Positions 17,104-63,946 of a DNA stretch of 64,000 bases are shown here, one piece after another. The stretch lies in contig NC_092376.1 of the NCBI RefSeq assembly GCF_030028105.1, positions 186,364,438 to 186,428,437 on the forward strand, given 5' to 3'. The notes beneath the pieces were generated by a model. The model was not told where the DNA came from. It was given only the letters and a program-made list of their open reading frames with translations, and did no database searches. Each line of letters opens with the position of its first letter. Position 1 is the stretch's first letter. The translations under genes and the position numbers were made by a program. The stretch comes from Mobula birostris. Lineage: Eukaryota.

Positions 17104-17194
17104 ACTCAGTGTTGTAGACTATCATGGGCACTAGCCTTCCCAGCACTGAGGCCATATTCAAAAGGTGATGTCTCAAAATGGCGACATCCATAAT

Positions 17195-17825
17195 CTTCTC
17201 TGTCTCCATTTCTGGAGACAAACTGTCCACCAATATCTTTTATAAATCGACCAATTTCCATGGCTATCTTGACGATACCTCTTTTACCCTGTCTCCTATA
17301 AAAATGCTTTTCCCTTTTTCAGTTCCTTTATTTCGGCTGCATCTGTTCTCTGCATGAGGCTTTCTCTACCAGGACATCAGAGATATCCTCCATCTTCAAA
17401 GAACAGGATTTCCCTTCCTCCACCATAGATGCTGCCCTCACCTGCATCTCCTCAATTTCCTGTCCCTTTTTTTCTATTCCCCAATTTGACCTCTTACCTC
17501 CTCTCACCTGTCTATCAACTCCCCTTGGGTCTCCTTTTCCTTTCTTTTCTCCTATGGTCAATACTCCTTGCCTGTCAAATTCATTCCTCTACAGCCCTTT
17601 ACCTTTCCTACCCACCTGGTTTCAGCTATCAGCTTCCAGCTAGCCACCTTCCCCTCCCCCTGCCACCTTTTATTTTGTCATTTTCACGCTTCTTTTCTGG
17701 TCCTGGAGACGGGTCTCAGTCCAAAACATTGACTGATTATTAATTTCCATAGATGCTGCCTGACCTGCATTCCTCCAGTATTTTGCATATGTTGTGCTGG
17801 ATTTCCAGCATCTGTAGAATTTTTC
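17195..17825 (+). mobile_element. Penelope-like element fragment (RT thumb region plus 3' terminal repeat)
   Basis: Reads approximately SVSISGDKLSTNIFYKSTNFHGYLD...QFL..CICS, then a pyrimidine-rich UTR and the shared GATGCTGCCTGACCTGC terminus. Degenerate TSD ACATCCATAAT / ATGTCCATAAT. Confidence 0.8.
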
Positions 17826-19257
17826 ATGTCCATAATTAAGGACCCTATCATCCAGGACACGCGCTCTTCTCATTGTTACCATCGGGTAGGAGATACAGCA
17901 GCTTGAAGTCATAAAGTTAATGTTTTAGGAACAACTTCTTCCTCACCAACAAATTTTTGAATAGACAGTGAACTAACCCATGAACATTACTTCACTATTT
18001 TTCTTGCTCTCTTATTGGACTTATTTAGCTTTAATATATTTATACCTGCATATAGATGTTTCTCATTATAATTGATAGTATTTTTGTCTATTGACTGTAC
18101 AACAAACTTCACGACATATGCCAATAATATTAAACCTGATTGATTCTGAATCCCTGCAGGAAAATGCATCTAAGAGTAGTATATGATGACATATATGTAT
18201 TTTGATAATAAATGTACTTTGAACCTTTGAACTTTCAGACTTACCACTGAGTTGTAACCTGTTCCGGACGAGATATTAACTGTGAGCCCTCTTCTGGAGC
18301 AGGTAAAAGACCCAATGGCATGACATTGATGAAAGCTGGGAAGTTGTCTACGTATTCATGCTGGATATTTCAGTGTTTGACAGCTGAATCCTGATGAAAT
18401 ATCTTGGCCTGAAATGTCAACTGTTCATTCCTCTCCATGGACGCTGCCTGAACAGCTGAATTTTGTGTGTGTTTCTTTGGATTTCCATCATCAGCACATT
18501 GTCTCGTGTTCATTGCCTGAAAGTTGTTTCTTTTAGAGGTAGTTTGGTGAATCAAGTGTTCTGAAAGTCCTGCATTACATTTTTTTCTCATTTTGCTTTC
18601 CACATGTAGCTGGCAACCTCAGCTAGCATGCAGAATATTATTCATTTTAAAATATTCCCTTTTCTCCATTGACATTTTATGAGCTGCGTCTGATTCATTT
18701 GTATTTAAAATATAGCTCTGACCATGTTTTATTTAGTAGTCATGGTGTGAGAGTTGCAGAATGATAAAGAGTCTAATCAGCCTGAACAAACTGGTCAGGC
18801 ATCCTTCAATGTTGGCTACTCATCTACTCTGAATTCAACATAAAATATTAACAATACCCCGCTGAGTATTCAATAACAAATTAGGCCACTCTTAGCTGTG
18901 ACAAAACATACTAACAAACATGGGATTCCCAGAGATCCTAGATAATAACATCTTTTTCGTTGAGGAATTAGAGTTCACTGCGTGGAACTTGTGAACCCTG
19001 TAACCCCTGGATCTCAGACTCTGGAGCAAATCATCGCCTCATAGGCTCACCTCCAATGCATGGTTATTTGTGAAACAGAAGCTTGCAGCTTCTGCCATGT
19101 ATTTCTTGAATAACTTAATTGATATGCTGTCTTGTATTAAGGAAGATTTGATTGTGGAAATATTGAAGTCTAATATCTGGAAACACAAGAGGTTCTGCAG
19201 ATGCTGGAAATCCAGAATAACGCATACAAAATGCTGGGGAAATTCCAGCGCAGATGT

Positions 19258-19530
19258 CACGGTAGCATAATGGTTAGCGAGACAGCTCGGGGCTTCGGAG
19301 TTCAGAGTACAATTCCAGCATCATCTGCGGGTAGTTTGTACCTCCTCCTTGTGGAATCTGTGAGCTTTCCTCGGGTGCTCCAGCTTCCTCCCATGGCGTA
19401 GGATAATTGGTCATTGTAGATTGTACCATGATTAGGTTAGGGTTAAACGGGGTTGTCAGGGGTTGCTGGGGTGGGGTGGCTCAAAGGCCTGGAAGAACCT
19501 ACAGTGAGCTGTATCACTAAGTAAATAAAC
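19258..19530 (+). mobile_element. V-SINE/HE1-like SINE inserted into a Penelope-derived fragment
   Basis: A-box-like GGTAGCATAATGGTTAGC and a TTTCCTCGGGTGCTCCAGCTTCCTCCCA body. The host repeat resumes at about 19530. Confidence 0.65.
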
Positions 19531-20514
19531 TCAGCTGGTCAGGCAGCATCTATGGAAAGGAATAAACAGTCAACGTTTCAGACCGTTCATCAGGACTCCT
19601 TTCCTTTGATGCTTCCTGACCTATTGAGTTCCTCTAGCATTTAGTAGGTGCTAGTCTAATATTTGTGGCATTTCTTACTACATTCATAAGCCATACCCAT
19701 AACTAATTTCAGCAAAAATTGAGGACCAATTATAACAAAGTCAATTTGTTGCAGAAAAAACATCTGTTTCAATGTCTTTGTAAATGTCTTTGTGAAAAAA
19801 TCTACAGATGCTGGGAGTCTGAAATAAAAACTGATGATGCTGAAAATATTTAGCCGGTCAAGAAACATACATGGAGAAAGAAACCAAATTAATATTTCAG
19901 ATCAGTGACATTCCTTCAGATATAAGGTCACAAACTTGAAACATTAATTCTGTTTTCATCTCCATGATATTCTTGATTTTAAACACTGTCTATTTCTGTT
20001 TATAGATCATAATGTTAACAAAAGTATTTTTAATGCACACAAAACTACAGACATGATATTCTGAAGATGGTGGAAATCCACACACAAAATGCTGGAGGAA
20101 CATAGCAGATCAGGCAACATTTATGGAAATGAATAAATAGTCGTTGATTCGAGCCGACATTCTTCATCAGGACCAAGTACCACCAATCCTAATGAAGGGC
20201 CACCAGTAACTACACTTCCAGTCTCAAACAAAAATAGAAACTGTAGTTAAAACCCAGCAGGGCCTGCAGCACCTGAAGAAAGAAAGAGTCAATTTTTCTG
20301 GCAAGGCGTTGCAGGCCCAAAATGTAGACTATTTCTCCTTCCACACATGTTGGCTAACTGCAGATTTTTTCTCGGCACCTTCTATGTTTGTCTCAGATTT
20401 TTGACAGCTGCAGTTTCTTTTTTGATTTACACTTACAAAGAATAGTGGAATGTTCTGTGTGTGTGAAAAGTACTCCAGATATTTAGTTCTTTCCCACTAT
20501 CCTGAACTCAAAAT

Positions 20515-24039: not shown

Positions 24040-24605
24040 TGTAAGACCCTAAGATACAGGAGCAGAATTAAGCCATTTGACCCATTGAGTCTCAAACACA
24101 AGAAAATCTGAAAATGCTGGAAGTCCAAAGCAATGCACAAAAAAGGCTGGAGGAACTTAGCAGGTCAGGCAGCATCTACGGAAAAGAGTCCTGAAGAAGT
24201 GTCTCACTTCAAAACATCGAAAGTTTACTCTTTTCTATAGATGCTCCTTGGTCTGCTGAGTTCCTCCAGTATTGTGTGTGTGTGGCCCATTGAGTCTGCT
24301 CTGTTATTCCATCATGACTGACTTATTATCCTTCTCAACCTCACTCTCCTGCCTTGTGTCCATAACCTTTGATGCCCTTACGATAGCCTGTCAACCTCCA
24401 CCTTAAATAAACCCAAAGATCGGACTTCCACAGCCATCTGTGACAACAAATTCCACAGATTCACCACCGTCTGGCTAAAGAAATTCCTTTTCATTTCTAT
24501 TTTAAAGGAAGTCTTTCTATTCTAAGGCAGTGCCCTCTAGTCCTAGATTCCCCTGCTACAGGAAACATCCTGTCCACATTCACATCCACTCTATCTGATC
24601 TTTCA
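24040..24605 (-). mobile_element. CR1 3' fragment containing a fold-back Penelope-derived insertion (24093-24285)
   Basis: CR1 tail and RNFFSQTVVNL motif. The insertion is flanked by CCCATTGAGTCT at 24081-24092 and 24286-24297. Confidence 0.85.
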
Positions 24606-25058: not shown

Positions 25059-25634
25059 CCATCGAGTACCTCTGCTCCATCCGCCACATCAGACAGGATC
25101 TCCCGGTTGCCACCCACTTCAATTCTGCTTTACATTCCCATTCGGGTACGTCCATACATGGCCTCCTCTACTGCCATGATGAGGCTAAACTCAAGTTGGA
25201 GGAGCAACACCTCATATACCGTCTGGGTAGTCTCCAGCCCCTTGGTACGAACATCGAATTCTCCAACTTCCGGTAATTCCCTCCCCCTCCCTTCCCCTAC
25301 CCCAGTTTCACTCTGTCCCCTCCCCCAGCTGCCTATCACCTCACTTATGGTTCCGCCTCCTTCTACTACCCATTGTGTTTTCCCCATTTCCTTCTTCACC
25401 TTTCCTGCCTATCCCCTCCCTGCTTCCCCTCCCCAACCACTTTATCTTTCCCCTTACTGGGTTTTCACCTTGAACCTTCCAGCCTTCTCCTTCCCACCCT
25501 CCCCCCACCTTCCTTATAGGGCCTCTGCCTCTTCCCTCTACAGTCCTGATGAAGGGTTCCAGCCGAAATGTTGACTGATCATTTCCACAGATGCTGCCCG
25601 ACCTGCTGAGTTCCTCCAGCGTGTTGTGAGTGTT
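25059..25634 (+). mobile_element. Penelope-like element 3' end (GIY-YIG endonuclease C-terminus plus terminal repeat), 11-bp TSD
   Basis: Reads QDLPVATHFNS..HSHS..SIHGLLYCHDEAKLKLEEQHLIYRLGSLQPLGTNIEFSNFR*. TATATGACTGA at 25048-25058 and 25635-25645. Confidence 0.9.
25541..25577 (+). ncRNA. Minimal hammerhead ribozyme motif (partly decayed)
   Basis: CAGTC-CTGATGA-AGGGTTCCAGCC-GAAA-TGTT-GACTG: stem I CAGTC/GACTG encloses the conserved core. Confidence 0.6.
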
Positions 25635-29929: not shown

Positions 29930-30330
29930 ACACAAGAGATTCTGAAGAGACGCACACAATATATTGGAGGAATTCAGCAAGTGAGGCAGCATCTATCAGG
30001 GGAATAAACAGATGATGTTTCTGGCTGAGACTCTTCATTAGGACCGGAAAGGAAGGGAGGATAAGCCAGACTGGTCACCTCTCAGCTTCTTACATCATTC
30101 CTTTTCATCCCTCCTCCCATACCCGCTTAACTTTCCCCTATCAACTGGATTTACCAACCACCTGCCAATTATATAACCGCCCCCTCCACCCTTCACTTTC
30201 TTTTTCTGACTTCCACCCCCTTTCTTTCATGTCCTGATGAGGGTATTTGGCCTGGAATGTAAACTGTTTATTTCCGTGTACAGTTGCTGCCTGAATCGTT
30301 GAGTTCCTCCAGCATTTTGTGGGTGCTACT
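29930..30330. mobile_element. Two Penelope terminal-repeat fragments in inverted arrangement
   Basis: Minus copy at about 29930-30070 and plus copy at about 30075-30330, each with a decayed CTGATGA..GAAA motif. Confidence 0.7.
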
Positions 30331-30425
30331 TAAGTATGATCTTTGGCCCCTTTGACAGCACTTTTCTAAGACAAGACATCTGGAGTGACACGGGTTACTG
30401 GGTCAAAACATTGCCACCAGTTATA

Positions 30426-33810: not shown

Positions 33811-34532
33811 ATATACTGCGTCCGGTGCTCCTGATGCGGCCTTCTATATATTGGCGAGACCCGATGCAGGCTGGGAGACCGTTTCACTGAATTCCTAGGC
33901 TCTGACTGCCAGAGAAAGCAGGATCTCCCAGTGGCCACACATTTTAATACCACGTCCCATTCCCATTCTGATATGTCTATCCATGGCCTCCTCTACTATA
34001 AAGATGAAGCCACACTCAGGTTGGAGGAACAACACCTTATATTCCGTCGGGGTTGCCTTCAACTGATGGCATGAACATTGGCTTCTCCAACTTCCGTTAA
34101 TGCCCCACCTCCCCTTCGTACCCCATCCATTATTTATTTATTATTATTATTAAGTTTTTTTCTCTCTCTCCTTTTTCTCCCTCTGTCCCTCTCACTATAC
34201 CCCTTGCCCATCCTCTGGGCTTCCCCCCTCCCCTTTTCTTTCTCCCTAGGCCTCCCATCCCATGATCCTCTCATATCCCTTTTGCCAACCAACTTTCCAG
34301 CTCTGAGATCCACCCCTCCCCCTCCTGTCTTCTCCTATTATTTCGGACTCCCCCTCCCCCTCCTACTTTCAAATCTCTTACTATCTCTTCTTTCAGTTAG
34401 TCCTGACGAACGGTCTCGGCCCAAAACGTCAACTGTATCTCTTCCTATAGATGCGGCCTGGCCTGCTGCATTCACCAGCAATTTTTATGTGTGTTGCTTG
34501 AAATTCCAGCATCTGCAGATTTCTTTGTGTTT
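33811..34532 (+). mobile_element. Penelope-like element 3' end with GIY-YIG domain
   Basis: Reads IYCVRCS*CGLLYIGETRCRLGDRFTE...DLPVATHFN...RLEEQHLIFR. Hammerhead-like AGTCCTGACGAACGGTCTCGGCCCAAAACGTC at 34399-34430. Confidence 0.9.
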
Positions 34533-40155: not shown

Positions 40156-40829
40156 CAACACCTATTGAGAGGAACAAACAGTCAATGTTTCAGGCCAAGA
40201 GCCTTCACCAGGACTGGAAAAGCAGGGAGCAGAAGCCAGACTAAGAAGGTGGATGAAGGGGAAGGAGTACAAGCTGACAGATGATAGTTGGAACCAGGTA
40301 GGGACCAAGTGAAAGACTGGGAGGTGATCGATGGAAGAGGTAATGGGTTGAAAAAAAAGGGAATCTGACAGGAGTGGAGGGAGAAAGGGAAGGAGAAGGT
40401 GCACCAGAGGCAGGTAAGGAGAAGAGATGGGGCTAAGAGAAAATATAGTAACTTAGCATGTCATTTATCATTTACAAACACAAAATAAGTATCAAGTCAC
40501 AATTAGCAGTGTGAAATGGGACCTTTGTGATTTAGAATAAGGGAAACATTGTCTGAAATGACTCATTAATATCCAATTGCCTTCAGAGTTTGAGCTGTGT
40601 TGGATGTTTGTGTGGGTGGGGCTGATTTATGCTGGATGAAAGGAAAGTTAGGTTGATCAGCACTGGGTATGTGGGCAGGTGAAGCTGTCCTGTTAGTCTT
40701 CACCAATCTCACAGAGAACTGTAGACACATTTTATCACTGATTGGAAACATTGCTCCACGTCCTGTTCACAAAAGCTAATTGCTACTGATTCATTTCAGA
40801 AGGCTATTTATTACGTGCAATTTATGGTA

Positions 40830-41390
40830 CACACTCAGTGGCCACTTTATTAGTTACACCTTGCATCTGCTTGTTTATGGTACACATTCAGTGGCCACTT
40901 TATTAGTTACACCTTGCATCTGCTTGTTAATGCAAATATCTCATTATCCAATCATGTATCAATGCATAACAGCATGCTGATATGGTCAAGAGGTTCATTT
41001 GTTGTTCAGAGCAAACATCAGCATGAGGAAAAAAAAGGACTTTCACTGTGGAATATTTGTTGGTGTCAGAGAGGGTAGTTTACTGCTGGATTTTCACATA
41101 CAACAGTTTCTGGAGTTTACAGAGAATGGTGCAGGAAACAAAAGCACCCAGTGAGCAGCATTTCCATGGGTGAAAATGCCTTGTTATTGAGAGAGGTCAG
41201 AGGGGAATGACCAGACTGGGTCAAGTTGGCAGGAAGATGACAATAACTAAAATTGTCATGTTGTAGAACAGTGATGTGCCGAAGAGTATCTCAGAATGCA
41301 GTGCACATTGAACCTTGAAATGGATTGGCTACGGCAGCAGGAGAACACACCATATACCACTCCTGTACCTAATAAAGTGGCCACTGAGTG
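40830..41390 (+). mobile_element. Non-autonomous Tc1-derived element (same family as 30426-30984) with a duplicated left end
   Basis: TIRs CACTCAGTGGCCACTTTATTAG / CTAATAAAGTGGCCACTGAGTG; 53-bp tandem duplication at 40821-40926. Confidence 0.9.
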
Positions 41391-41835
41391 GGTATTCCAG
41401 CAGTAGCATTGGGTAGAATGGAAAAAAAAGTCTTTTATTTCCAATTGGATAAAATGTACCCTTTTTTAAATTCTCTTGTGTTATGCAGACATTCAATTGA
41501 TCATAACTGCTTGATTGAATCACTACTGAGACCCTCGTCTCCCTTCCTGAAATGCTTGGAGAAGTACCCATGTCATCACTGGAGGAAGATTGCAAGAGTG
41601 TAGGTTGAAATTTTCCTGATATCTGGTCTGATAGACCAACATTACTGAAAAAGCTTTTCTATTCATTATTTCATTCCTATTTAGGGATCTTGTGTTTTTC
41701 AAATTGCCTCTTTCTTCATCAGAGCTAAGATGCCATTTCAGAAGTGTATCCTTAATCCTTACCCTCTGTGGGAAGTCTCAGTGTCACAAAATGCAACAAG
41801 GTGGGGAGGTTGGGAGGTTTCCTAACTAACCTCTG

Positions 41836-42982
41836 CATGGGAGGTTAGTTAGGAAAATTCAGTAGCTAGGTATACGTGGAGAGGTGGTAAATTGGATTAG
41901 ACATTGACTCGATGGAAAAAGCCAAAGAGTGGTAGTAGAGAATTGCTTCTCCGAGTGGAGGCCTGTGACTAGTGGTGTGCCACAGGGATCAGTGCTGGGT
42001 CCATTGTTATTTGTCATCTATATCAATGATCTGGATGATAATGTGGTAAATTGGATCAGCAAATTTGCTGATGATACAAAGATTGGAGGTGTAGTAGACA
42101 GTGAGGAAGGTTTTCAGAGCCTGCAGAGGGACTTGGACCAGCTGGAAAAATGGGCTGAAAAATGGCAGATGGAGTTTAATACAGACAAGTGTGAGGTATT
42201 GCACGTTGGAAGGACAAACCAAGGTAGAACATACAGAGTAAATGGTAAGGCACTGAGGAGTGCAGTGGAACAGAGGGATCTGGGAATACAGATACAAATT
42301 TCTCTAAAAGTAACATCACAGGTAGATAGGGTCGTAAAGAGAGCTTTTGGTACATTGGCCTTTATTAATCAAAGTATTGAGTATAAGAGCTGGAATGTTA
42401 TGATGAGGTTGTATAAGGCATTACTGAGTCCGAATCTGGAGTATTGTGTTCAGTTTTGGTCACCAAATTACAGGAAGGATATTAATAAGGTTGAAAGAGT
42501 GCAGAGAAGGTTTACAAGGATGTTGCCGGGACTTGAGAAACTCAGTTACAGAGAAAGGTTGAATAGGTTAGGACTTTATTCCCTGGAGCGTAGAAGAATG
42601 AGGGGAGATTTGATAGAGGTATATAAAATTATGATGGGTATAGATAGAGTGAATGCAAGCAGGCTTTTTCCACTGAGGCAAGGGGAGAAAAAGCCAGAGG
42701 AGATGGGTTAAGGGTGAGGGGGGAAAAGTTTAAAGGGAACATTAGGGGCGGCTTCTTCACACAGAGAGTGGTGGGAGTATGGAATGAGCTGCCAGACGAG
42801 GTGGTAAATGCGGGTTCTTTTTTAACATTTAAGAATAAATTGGACAGATACATGGATGGGAGGTGTATGGAGGGATATGGTCCGTGTGCAGGTCAGTGGG
42901 ACTAGGCAGAAAATGGTTCGGCACAGCCAAGAAGGGCCAAAGGGCCTGTTTCTGTGCTGTAGTTTCTATGGTTTCTATGGTT
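41836..42982 (+). mobile_element. Young 5'-truncated CR1 LINE, RT C-terminal half almost intact
   Basis: 260-aa ORF 41929..42711 with SGVPQGSVLGPLLFVIYINDLD and SKFADDTK; one frameshift near 42690; TTTCTATGG tail. Confidence 0.97.
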
Positions 42983-45179: not shown

Positions 45180-47040
45180 GAAGTACTGATTCCCTGAAAA
45201 TGGCACTGCAGGTAGTCAAGGTTTTCAGCACACTGAATTTTGTTATGCTGGACATTAAATATAAAAGCTGGTATGTAATTTTGCATTTGTGGAGGGCAGT
45301 AGTGAGGCCACATTTGGAATACAGTAACACAGGAGGTTCTGCTGACCCTGGAGATCCAGAGCAACACATCACATAGTTTGGCACAGACGAGATGGACTGG
45401 AGGGCCTGTTCCTGTGCTATCGTTTTCCATGACTCTAAAATTCTGGGGGAGCTCAGCGGGCAAGGCAGCATCAATGGAAAGGAATAAACAGTTGCCATTT
45501 CAGGTCGAGACCCTTCTTCAGAGTTGGAAAGGAAGGAGGAAGACATCAGAATAAAAATGTGGGACACGGGGAAGGAGGCTAGCTGGAAGATGATGGAAGG
45601 ACTGGAGAAGAAGTAACCTGATAGGAGAAAGTGAAGAAGGAGGAGCACATCGGCAGGCAACGAGAAGAGATAAGATACGTGGTTGTGATAGCAAATTCTG
45701 GTGAACAGTCTTGGTCCTAAACATCAGTATTTTATTCTGCTCTATAGATCAATAGTTCAATCATTCCATTTAATATCAAGAATATATACAATATAAAACC
45801 TGAAATTCTTGATTTTAGATGCTGCCTGACTTGCTGACTTCCTCCTGCATTCCATGTGTTCCATTTGGAATACTATGTTCAGTTTTAGTCACCCTGCTAT
45901 GGGAAAGGTGCCACTTAGCTGAGTGCATAAGAGTGCGGAAAAAATCCTGCAGAGAAGTGCAGAATAATATGTGTTGATGTTACCAGTACTTGAGGGATTG
46001 AGTTATAGGGAAGTTTTGGACAAGATAGTATATTATTCCTTGGAGCACAGGAGACTGAGGGGTGATCTTATAAACATGTATAAAATCACAAGGGACATAG
46101 ATAGGGTGATGCATACAGCCCTTTTGCCAGGGCTGAGGAATCAAGAACTAGAGGGCATAGATATAAGGTGAGAGGGAAACTTGAAGGGAAACTTTTTTCA
46201 CACAGAGGGTGATGTTTGAATGCAACAAACTGCCAGAGAAGTGGATGAGGCCAGTTGGGTAAGAATATTTAACAAGCATTTGGATAGGTAATTCAAAGTA
46301 AATTTATTATCAAGTTACATATATGTCACCATCTATAACCCTGAGATTAATTTTCTTGTGGGCATGATCAATAAACCTATAGAATAGTAACTATAGCAGG
46401 ATCAATGAAAGATCAACAAGAATGCAGAAGACAACAAACTGTGCAATTGCAACTGTAAATAAAAAGCTATAAATAACGAGATCTGGAGAAAGTGAGATAA
46501 AGAGTCTTTAATGATCATTGGTCGAGGGAACATTTCAATGATGGGGCAAGTGAGTGTACTTATCTCCTTTTATCCAAGAGCCTGATGGTTGAAAGGTAGA
46601 AACTGTTCTTGAACTTGGAGGTGTGAGTCCTGAGGCTCTTATATCTTGTACATAATGGCAGCAGTGAGGAGAGAGCATGGCCTGAATGTTGTGTCTCTAA
46701 CGATGGATGCTGCTTTCCTATGACAGCATTTCATGTAAATGTACTGAATGGTTGGGAGGGCTTTATCCATGATGGTCTGGCCCGAATCCATGACCATTGT
46801 TTGCATTTTCTTGTGGGCATGATCAATAAATGTTCAAAGGCATTGGTGTTTCCACACCAGGCCATGATGCAGCCAGTCAATATACTCTCCACTACACCTC
46901 TCGATACATGGAGAAGAAAAGTTTAGTGTCATATGGGACATATGTGGGCAACTAGAACTGGAGTAGATGGACAGCTTGATCAGTATGGATGATTTGAGCC
47001 AAATGACCTGTTTCCATGCTTCATGAATCTGTGACTCTGA
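45180..47040 (+). mobile_element. Fragmented CR1 pieces with nested Penelope and Rex1/Babar insertions
   Basis: ORF 45971..46171 reads LEGLSYREVLDK...LRGDLI. Penelope pieces at about 45335-45700; Rex1/Babar on the minus strand at about 46290-46900; CR1 tail at about 46930-47040. Confidence 0.7.
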
Positions 47041-57122: not shown

Positions 57123-59699
57123 GTACACCTTCACTGCCCACTCCCATGCTACCACATCTTCTGTAGGGAGTTTGTACACTCTCCCCATGAAACATGCACA
57201 TTTCCTCTGGATGCTCCTGTGTTCTCCAAAAGTCCAAAGATCTACCAATTAATAGGTTAATTAGTCAGCTTTGAAACAGTATGAATTGCTCATCTTCCTA
57301 AAACACTGTAGCTTGTAATATAACTGACACATTTTGGTGGCTTGCTCAACGGTTAGAAAAACGGTGATCAAACAGTGAAATTGCTGGACCAGTAAATCCA
57401 GAAGTCTGGGCTAGTAGTGCATACAACCAAGTCCAACTACTACCAGGGAAACCAAAGAATTTAAATTCAGCTTATAAATTCAAAGGCAAATCAAAGTAAA
57501 GTTACTATCAAAGTACATACATGTTACCAAGTATTACCTTGAGATTCATTTTCTTTCGAGCATTTACAGGAAAATACAATAGAATTTATTTTTGAAAATT
57601 ACATTTAAACAAAGACTCACAACCAACGTATAAAAGAAGGCAAATTGTGTAAATAAAAACAAAATATGACTGAGTTGTATAGTCCATGACAGTGAGTTTG
57701 CAGGTTGTGGAATCAGCTCAGTGTTATGATGAGGAAAGTTGTCTGTGCCATTTCAGAGGCCTGATGGCTGAAGGGTAATAACTGTTCCTCAACATGATGG
57801 TGTGAGAACTAAGACTCCTGTACATCCTGCCTGAAGGTAGTAGCAAGCTAATTTGAAACAATAGCTAGCTTTAATATGGTGATTTTTTTCCAAACTCATC
57901 TAGTTAATTAATGTGCTTCTTGGGAGGAATCTGCTGTCCTCGCCCAGACTTTGCTATGATGCAACTCAGGCCAATCTCATGTAAATACCTCCTGAAATGG
58001 GCAAGTAAGTCAGTCAGTTCTAGATGCCTCATGCTTACATTCTCGAGGATAATCAGAGGTGAGCTATCAACTCTGGTCAATCCAGTGACATCCAGATTCT
58101 GAAGAGCAAGCTGAAAGTAGAAAGTCAATTACATAGGGTTTACATAATGCTAAAATGAGAAAAGAAATTGTAACTTCTTACCTAAAGGCACCAACAAACC
58201 AAATAAATTATTATTGCAATAAGGTTGCTTCACAGACGATTCTACTAACAGTTGATTTTTATTGCAGATTTATTTAATTAACTAAATGTAATTCATAGTG
58301 TGTTTTGAACTCATGGTGTCTTCAGCTCATTAGTCCAAGCCCCTGTGTTATCAACTCATCAATTTAACCAGAATGTTATTGTTCCCATAGTTCTAAAGTG
58401 GAGAGAGAGCTGATGGGGATGGTGATAAAAGAGCAATTTTTTTTAAAATATAGCAACCTGAGCCAGAAATATGTTAAAATGCATATTGCTAAAAGCAAAT
58501 GACCACAAGCTAAATGCTAACGCTGGATTTGGAGAGATCAAGGAAAAAGGGCACTTTAAAAGTACATTCATATGTGCAATATGCAATAAAGTTGCCTGCT
58601 GTTCTTGTGGTGTTATTAAAATATGTATTAAAAAAGCTAGCATATATATAATGGTATCAAATTTTCAAAATGTCTCCAAGTCCTTCATACCTTAAATTAC
58701 TTTGCAAGTATAATAACCTCCTAAAGTTCTGAAAGGAATTTTTTTCACCTTCTTAATATGTAAGCTTAAATACTCAGATCTGAAATTGAGAGTCATAAAC
58801 TAGGCATTACATAGGAGGATTTAAATCTTCCCTTGGTCCCAGCCCCCATGACTCTGAAATCTTTATTCACCCTATAATTAAAGAAAAGATTAAGCATTAG
58901 CTTTATTTATCACATGTACATTGAAGCATCGAAGCATACAGTGTAATGTATCATTTGAGTCAAATCAATTCAATGAGGATTGTGTTGGTCAGCCAGCAAG
59001 ACACTCACTCAATGATTCAGAAATAGCTTTATCTCCTCTGCCATACAAATTGTGAATGAACGTTGAACCCATGAACACAATCTCATGACTTTTTTGTTTC
59101 TATTTTGCACTAATTATTTAACAATTTAATATAAATATATTCACTGTAATTCACATTTTTTCTGTTATTATGTATTACATTGCATTGTTGCAGCAAAGAC
59201 AACAAATTTCAGAGCATGTGCTGTTGATATTAAACCTGATTCTGAAGTGTCATCACACGTTCAGTGCTAACATTATCAAGCCCATAACTCATTAACCCTA
59301 ACTGTACACCTTAGGAATGTAGGATGAAACTGGAGGTCCTGGAAGAAACCTACGTGATTATGGGGAGAATGTACAAACTCCTCATAGGCCTCAGTGGGTA
59401 TTGAACCCTGATCAGTGATCCTGGCACCTTAAAGCATTGTGCTAACCACTATGCTACCGTGCCGCCACCTTAGCCTGGCCACTTTGACTCCCTACGAGGT
59501 AAGTCTTACACTCTAATTATGCCGCTATACCTCACTATTTATTTGTGTTTCCAATTTCCAGCATTGTCACACAGCATTGAAATGGGCATTTTGGCTTATC
59601 AAATCCATGGTGACCATCAAGCACACAGCTACATCTATATTATATTAACCCCACATTCTCATCAACCTGCCACTCACCGATACGTCACCGTATATGCCG

Positions 59700-60292
59700 T
59701 TTAATATGATGTGGGCTATCATGGTCTATCCATGACCATGATTGTTCTTGGCATATTTTTCTACAGAAGTGGTTTGCCAATGCCTTCTTCTGGGTAGCAT
59801 CTCTACAAACACAAAATAATCTGCAGATGCTGTGATCAAAGCAACACTTTCAGTACGCAGGATGAACTCAGCAGGTCGGGCACCGTCAGTTAGAAACGAT
59901 GAGTCGACGTTTCAGGCCGGAACCCGACGAAAGGTTCCGGCCTGAAACATCGACTCATCGTTTCTAACTGATGTTGCCCGACCTGCTGAGTTCATCCTGC
60001 GTACTGAAAGTGTTGCTAGCATCTCTACAAGACAAGTGATCCCCGCCATTATCAATACTCTTCAGAGACTGTCTGCCTGCTGCCATTGGTTGCATAGCCA
60101 GCACTTGGGATATGCACCATCTGCTCATATGGCCATCCACCACTTGCTCCCATGGCTTCATGTGACCCTGATTAGGGGTGGCGGAGGGAGCTAAGCAAGT
60201 CTACACCTGGCCCAAGGGTGACCTGCAGGCTAGCAGAGGGAAGGAGTGCCTTACACCTTCTTTGGTAGAGACGTATCTCCACCCCGCCATCC
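59700..60292 (-). mobile_element. RTE-like non-autonomous element (copy 4), host of the fold-back insertion
   Basis: Colinear with 9540-9875 once 59809-60030 is removed. Confidence 0.75.
59809..60016. mobile_element. Fold-back Penelope-derived insertion with 14-bp TSD
   Basis: Inverted arms 59840-59924 and 59933-60017 (3 mismatches in 85 bp). TAGCATCTCTACAA at 59795-59808 and 60017-60030. Confidence 0.92.
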
Positions 60293-60702
60293 AATTGACA
60301 GCATCCAGTTGACCTTCCCACCTGTATGTATTTGGGATGAAGGAGAAATCCAGAGTACAAGGAGGAAACAATATGTTTTATGGGAAGTTGTGCAAACTCC
60401 ACACAGACATCTCCTGAGATCAGGGCTGAACATGGGACTCTGGCATTAAGAGGCAGCAGCTTTAACTCTGCCATCCACTTCCCCGAAAAAAATTGTCATT
60501 CAGGAACAATTTGATTATATACAGATTCTGATCCGTTGCTTTATTGTTGATCCTTAGCTATATAATCAATTACCTGAACAAATTTAGCTGCCCCTAGTCC
60601 AATGGCAATAAATCTTGGCCTTTCTAGTTATGTACACAATAACGTAAAAAATCACCATGCCCCAAGTTATATTACTAGATGTTCTGTCCGATCTGATCCC
60701 AT

Positions 60703-63104: not shown

Positions 63105-63946
63105 CACAGGCACCATCCCTATAGACAAAAATGACACATCAATTTCCAGTGGGATTGCTTCCTCCAAGATTCCCTTCTCCATTCGGTCTTCCCTACTAAT
63201 CTCCCTTCTGGCATATACTATTGCAAGTGACTGAAATGCTACACCTGTCTACGTACCTCCTCCCTGACTTCTATTCAGGTTCTCAAAGAGTCCTTCAGGT
63301 GACGCTACACTTCACCTGTTTGGGTCATCTACTGCTTCCCAGTGCTCCTGATGCAGTCTCATCGATACCAGTAAAATCCAATTTAAATTGGGAGACTCCT
63401 TTGTCGAACACCTCCACTCCATCTGCTAACAGCAGAATTCCCTGGTGGCTAACCATTATAATTCCGATCCACATCTCCATTCTGACATGTCGGTCCATGG
63501 CCTCCTCTTTTGCCAGAATGATGCCACTTTCAGGGTGGAAGAGCAACACTTTATATTCTGGGTAGCCTTCAAACTGATGGCATGAATATTGATTTCTCCT
63601 TCTGGTAAAATAATTTTTTCCTACCCCTTCCATCTTCATCCATTCCCCATTCTGGCTTCTTACCTCATCTGCCTTTCACTTTCCCTCTTCGTCCCTTTCT
63701 CCCATGGTCCATTTTTCTTTCGTATCAGTTTCTTTCTTCTTCAGTCCTTTATCTTTCCCACCCACTTAGCTTCACCTATCAGCTTTTCGCTAGTCCTCTT
63801 TCCCTCCTCCCACCTTTTTATTCTGGCATCTTCCCCCTTCCTTTCCATCCTGAAGAAGGGTCTTAGCCGGAAACATCAACTGTTTCTTAATTTCCATAGA
63901 TGCTGCCCAACCTGCTGAGTTCCTCCATCATATTGTGTATGTTGCT
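63105..63946 (+). mobile_element. Degenerate Penelope-like element 3' region
   Basis: VIYC...LGDSFVEHLHSIC...SVHGLLFCQNDATFRVEEQH motifs; terminal repeat with CTGAAGAAGGGTCTTAGCCGGAAAC. Confidence 0.85.

Follow-up and report, generated by a model that had tools for sequence, protein, structure and literature searches.

The 208-bp insert at positions 59809–60016 of the window (the whole 64,000-nt stretch of Mobula birostris contig NC_092376.1 analyzed here) probably derives from the end of an endonuclease-bearing Penelope-like element (PLE), copied twice in head-to-head orientation when both nicked target strands were primed and the resulting cDNAs were linked close to the 5′ edge of the element's hammerhead motif. 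The family identity, the target-site duplication, a one-sided tail, the position of the junction, the ownership of the loop, and the broken ribozyme are all established at the level of sequence. This layout is already known for PLEs; what is added here is a tendency of copies to end at the outer edge of the ribozyme.

Structure of the insert and its target site

The insert consists largely of two inverted arms of 85 nt each, at 59840–59924 and 59933–60017, which differ by three mismatches (59883/59974, 59885/59972, and 59908/59949) and enclose an 8-nt loop, CGACGAAA. These coordinates, the arm length and mismatch count, the loop, and the 208-bp length of the insert reproduce those of an initial annotation of this DNA. 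Counted by site, the arms differ at three to four positions, at least one of which is attributable to CpG decay. As RNA, the hairpin has a predicted folding energy of −175.8 kcal/mol (z −26.7), a stability reached by 0 of 200 shuffles, and the other six inverted pairs in the whole window (arms of at least 25 nt, at most 600 nt apart) are all shorter and less perfect. The arm mismatches carry no directional A>G excess as an imprint of A-to-I editing, in a set of just four differences that is too small for a test.

The inverted arm, a 5′-truncated pLTR on the minus strand (59840–59925), opens at +8 from C3, exactly where hammerhead helix II begins. It is followed by the hammerhead core from G5 to A9 plus two A (59926–59932), which is in sense on the plus strand and hence belongs to the right arm. 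The remainder of the right arm (59933–60016, plus strand) is direct and tail-less, and holds the rest of helix II, the GAAA, the cut-site position after 59951, the 3′ strand of helix I (59952–59956), and the end of the pLTR. Read literally, the right arm thus starts at G5 (+2) and the junction lies at 59925|59926; alternatively, the arms share a 3-nt CCT overlap. The left arm alone continues into a 31-nt Penelope tail (59809–59839, minus strand), a 3′ extension that was omitted from the initial annotation. This tail is unpaired, has no partner on the right arm, and aligns with the 3′ end of other copies in the window. The locus therefore has the features of an EN+ Penelope-like insertion, namely a head-to-head 5′-truncated pLTR, a 31-nt tail at one end, and a target-site duplication, and it is likely a severely truncated inverted insertion that is ordinary for its kind.

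The direct repeats that had been noted on either side of the insert hold up as a 14-bp target-site duplication, with a left copy at 59795–59808 and a right copy at 60017–60030 (both plus strand, 14/14 identical); the first T of the right copy doubles as the next element base. A direct repeat of this length has a chance probability of ∼3e-5 in the searched end windows. The insert interrupts an older SINE-like host repeat (59690–60295, plus strand) of RTE-type appearance; it has three uninterrupted paralogues in the window at 74–78% identity, and very high summed depth in all four public sequencing runs. The target stretch is present once in each of these paralogues, and four locus-specific letters occur in both copies of the duplication. 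The duplication therefore dates from the insertion, by which time the host repeat was already old.

Among the joints listed for contigs of the four runs (622 further joints fell outside the list, and contigs break in repeats), no exact empty-site joint was found, and at least 15 listed contig skips come, by our reading, from paralogous host repeats. The insert flanks match organism B at ∼98%. In run X5, a contig of organism B on 59731–59831 passes from host repeat to tail without gaps, at single-copy depth and with 11 differences; its upstream letters do not fit this locus, and it is possibly an independent insertion at the same site in a paralogous host repeat.

A family of Penelope-like ends with a hammerhead consensus

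The initial annotation pointed to a Penelope-like origin, and this is borne out by the repeat family to which the arms belong. A profile was built from 17 copies in the window, and an nhmmer search of the window with this profile returned 34 matches, 33 of them at an E-value of 0.01 or better. Long copies cross a pyrimidine-rich stretch on their upstream side and reach the end of a reading frame beyond it. This frame end matches GIY-YIG in Pfam at E 0.014, below the curated cut-off, and GIY-YIG occurs in 21–26% of the members of its top Atlas matches. Its best relatives are ray proteins (Mobula and Hypanus; top identity 86%, E 3.6e-31), with 10 of 14 candidates passing. Two of these relatives, P0001 and P0003, carry the end of a reverse transcriptase (RT) together with PF26215 in precomputed annotation; copies in the window extend no further than the region behind the RT core. 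The link to GIY-YIG is seen in older copies (33811–34062, 25064–25267, and 63340–63567), and the insert itself is without coding sequence. In the window, no RT gene of the insert's own young subfamily was seen. On this sequence evidence, the family is an endonuclease-bearing PLE. Additionally, one copy has a Cys-rich linker before the endonuclease (63144–63335), a feature described as characteristic of the Neptune and Nematis clades (PMC8557442), which suggests, by motif rather than by tree, that the family belongs to the Neptune clade.

The arms share ∼69–85% identity with the older window copies over the aligned parts, and so represent a distinct subfamily. Summed contig depth over 59881–59954, which is not a copy number, amounts to 38–40 thousand in organism A and 71–75 thousand in organism B, where single-copy depth is 7.4 and 13.6, respectively; the subfamily thus stands at ∼5,000 times single-copy depth in both. 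In organisms C and D, the summed depth is 0.2–1.1 thousand, a raw depth 40 to 360 times lower, and we read the subfamily as a lineage-restricted expansion in A and B.

Pfam searches gave no match for three short fragments; across all 33 long frames in the window they gave only one RT, of another element, and identified no host gene. An open 267-aa frame at 41908–42711 matches RVT_1 at E 5.7e-15 and is presumably a CR1-type LINE. Pattern scans of viral contigs and metagenome contigs found nothing. A further family copy, at 17150–17829, has a large internal deletion that joins the region behind the RT to the pyrimidine-rich end.

The consensus of the window copies fits the published hammerhead descriptor, with a CUGANGA core, bulged A, helix II, GAAA, palindromic ACGU, and helix I, and it resembles the minimal hammerhead as defined in PMC4209133. 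Across family copies, 75% of helix cells are paired, vs. 17–47% when the helices are slid; covariation among these decayed copies does not beat shuffles (201/500 and 83/500). Rfam returned no hammerhead match and nothing at gathering score for insert or family; its miRNA-like matches were weak, far below their cut-offs, and were set aside as generic hairpin matches.

At the insert the motif is broken and buried in the 85-bp stem. Position 4 is T (CTG) in all 13 other window copies that were aligned, and here the sequence reads CCGACGA, with position 4 at the junction. The 5′ strand of helix I is absent, with GGAAC where GAGTC is required, and the predicted pairing probability of helix II is 0.0 in both the full hairpin and the local fold. 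The CUGANGA core and helices I and II of a minimal type I hammerhead were thus not found at the locus, and a ribozyme cannot form here, U4 and helix I having been lost at the junction. The breakpoint had been placed in the hammerhead core; the junction does lie at the hammerhead, and the CCGACGA core on which that placement relied is read across the junction. This copy of the hairpin is most likely inert.

Around the junction the family reads CCT-GANGA-A(G/A)GG, in which CCT is common to sense and antisense. A join through the CCT overlap followed by one T>C change would give the observed letters and set the end of the right arm at −1; a blunt join followed by one G>A change would account for them just as economically.

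Where truncated copies end

Among all 33 family matches, truncation is 4.9 times more frequent inside the hammerhead than elsewhere, and 4.4 times more frequent when the insert is left out (p 4e-4). For a stricter test of the ends, five weak matches and two pieces of one split copy were dropped, leaving 26 arms, and five ends were shifted 2–11 nt by eye; without the insert, 24 arms remain, comprising 18 ends and 6 censored arms. Eight of these 18 ends fall within the hammerhead (−5 to +32; rate ratio 3.3, p 0.014, insert excluded), and seven lie in its first 14 nt (−5 to +8), a window picked post hoc, with a scan-corrected p of 0.010. The core proper holds one end (1/18, p 0.56) and the cut site (+24 to +32) none (0/18). 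Keeping one end per insertion gives a median p of 0.023 and a worst value of 0.079. The consensus continues upstream with pyrimidine-rich sequence; the DNA 5′ of the clustered ends does not, and these ends are therefore real boundaries. The pile-up at −4 to −1, on the ribozyme's 5′ edge, is real and modest, in a small sample from one window. The suggestion of a mechanistic hotspot thus stands insofar as junctions are clustered but variable, and fails as to place, given that the ends gather at the 5′ edge and the core holds a single one. No report of PLE ends piling at the hammerhead edge was found in a literature search covering titles, the starts of abstracts, and few subscription papers.

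Two causes of truncation were considered and rejected. Ribozyme cleavage is at odds with the empty cut site and with the course of both arms of the insert, which run past it. For spliced templates, no upstream exon common to the copies that start at −4 to −1 was seen by eye. A pyrimidine tract with YAG stands directly 5′ of hammerhead helix I at 25520–25552, 34385–34412, and 40205–40240, and a donor-like GTAA occurs at the end of the reading frame at 25270–25280 and 63602–63612. Together these signals possibly mark a retained intron, comparable to that of the Drosophila virilis Penelope (PMC4209133); no spliced copy of the family was seen in the window.

Tentatively, ray PLEs may have a preferred RNA 5′ end, or a hard stop for the RT, at the outer edge of helix I, a place that also resembles a 3′ splice site (pyrimidine tract plus YAG), with the self-complementary motifs of the ribozyme supplying the overlap that joins the arms. 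If true, the hammerhead would act as a structural maker of ends and not as a cutter, and the inversion step of PLEs could be mapped base by base from thousands of young stumps.

Perfect duplications of 11–14 bp flank 6 of the 24 copies tested; two others have 8-nt matches, which were treated as chance, and 16 have none. Besides the insert, two of those six (24081–24297 and 45311–45873) are head-to-head with a tail on one arm; both are older and have other junctions. The pair at 45311–45873 has a 12-bp duplication and secondary insertions. The older pairs at 24081–24297 and 19520–19650 belong to different subfamilies; in both, the arms join at −4/+36 from C3 and the entire hammerhead forms the loop. 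More head-to-head pairs of the family, with other junctions, lie at 29930–30332, 20048–20200, and 20251–20357. Tail-bearing copies are mostly on the minus strand (12/16 vs. 3/11; hand tally, post hoc, Fisher p 0.02).

Origin of the hairpin and relation to known elements

In the proposed route, the endonuclease would cut the two target strands 14 nt apart. One end would then prime at an inner start site, giving the tail-less arm; priming from the other end, at a site 31 nt further out, would give the tailed arm. Both arms reach 26 nt beyond the cut site, so the template RNA would have been uncut. The tail-less cDNA would stop at about −1 to +2, where other copies end too, and its 3′ end could then pair through CCT/AGG with the second cDNA or with itself; in the latter case it would copy itself back and then meet the tail-primed strand. 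A private letter shared by both arms (A at 59859, T at 59998) makes it likely that they come from one molecule, through an RNA used twice, copy-back of a cDNA, or later conversion, and it fits DNA copy-back and two cDNAs equally well.

The initial annotation attributed the palindrome to a stall or template switch of reverse transcription at the ribozyme. In its pure form, one cDNA would stall there, snap back, and copy itself to give the whole insert, as in the self-priming proposed for PLEs by Arkhipova et al. (2013; PMC3846280). The CCT/AGG mini-hairpin of the family sits exactly at the junction, the private letter is common to both arms, and the pairs at 19597 and 24189 join at −4/+36 with the ribozyme as loop, all of which would suit such a fold-back. 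The arm that owns the loop would have to be the copied one, yet it lacks the 31-nt tail, and copies of this type already refute the single-primer form; furthermore, at 20048–20200 a 13-nt filler separates two arms that each begin at the hotspot. The loop reads in sense with the tail-less arm, so one fold-back cannot yield the tail; this points to a second priming from the other target end. Fold-back alone fails to explain the one-sided tail, and the layout is that of the published inverted pLTR plus tail; we consider it unlikely as the sole origin, and copy-back may be one step within the two-ended model.

It is also improbable that the insert descends from a non-autonomous hairpin master with a fixed junction, amplified as a unit by the PLE enzyme. 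The subfamily is abundant and lineage-restricted by summed contig depth, and two older pairs share one junction geometry, as a master would lead one to expect. The shared arm letter, however, is nearly absent from the runs: T is found at 59859 in 64373 of 64446 depth units in organism A and 63782 of 63912 in B, so that >99.7% are without the insert's letter and ∼10 single-copy units are left. The exact hairpin would then be limited to about ten arm copies, a figure drawn from depth, which is not copy number. Another copy without a tail, from A, aligns from 59926 onward, with the two preceding letters mismatching the junction, and the pairs in the window differ in junction, the two that share one carrying different subfamily letters. 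The window contains no twin of the exact hairpin, and an element amplifying in its own right, as had been suggested, is disfavored for this exact sequence.

A palindrome formed after insertion, by repair or recombination of neighboring copies, or as a fold-back artifact of assembly, is very improbable: no contig among the matches listed for the four public runs spans the insert or bridges its junction (contigs break in repeats, so this is not evidence of absence) and inverted PLE structures are known to trouble assemblers (PMC8557442), but both arms lie within a single target duplication and differ at several sites including the CpG decay, only one of them has a tail, the flanks are unmirrored and show 0 differences to organism A contigs over 306 and 236 nt, and sibling structures recur in the window.

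The preferred two-ended origin can be compared with published EN+ PLE insertions. Arkhipova et al. (2013) describe an inverted pLTR with a tail of 31 bp at one of its inverted ends, duplications of 8–10 bp, and palindromes at the inverted junction (PMC3846280), and Craig et al. (2021) a one-sided tail of 30–40 bp (PMC8557442), a layout with which PMC8969392 agrees. As far as these sources are available, the insert is like them in having arms placed head to head, one of which bears a 31-nt tail, a target duplication, and a junction at a short self-complementary stretch, and unlike them in being an almost pure hairpin without coding sequence and with arms of only 85–117 nt. The duplication is 14 bp here (11–14 bp in the family), vs. 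8–10 bp in the published cases.

In vitro, PAc, the lizard PLE protein (Poseidon of Anolis), nicks and extends both strands; two internal start sites bracket the tail, and uncut RNA is used, ribozyme cleavage not being needed (Frangieh et al., 2024; PMC11167929). Two starts a tail apart, extension of both strands, and uncut RNA are likewise deduced for the insert from its sequence. The distance from the start of helix II to the tail end is 117 nt at the insert, and PAc starts 111–118 nt from helix II. PAc is a Poseidon protein, whereas the family looks Neptune-like by the Cys motif of its linker, a motif-based and not tree-based assignment. The available portions of PMC11167929 do not treat 5′ junctions and inversions.

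Dual hammerhead motifs on opposite strands, 100–700 bp apart, have been described (PMC4209133). Non-LTR retrozymes, as far as described in the accessible text (bioRxiv 10.64898/2026.07.22.740005), share with the insert a short, non-coding, PLE-derived sequence and a type I hammerhead; they form head-to-tail tandem arrays with intact ribozymes, in contrast to the head-to-head insert, in which none is intact. With its single broken motif, we do not class the insert as a retrozyme.

The origin of the inverted structures of PLEs is described as still open (PMC8557442), as is the role of their hammerhead. The young ray subfamily described here, with its high copy number and clean stumps, is well suited to testing across the genome. 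Such hairpins, if transcribed, could feed dsRNA pathways. Elsewhere in the window, 31-nt inverted repeats ∼500 nt apart, with a duplicated left end, occur at 40828–41394 and are possibly a small DNA transposon.
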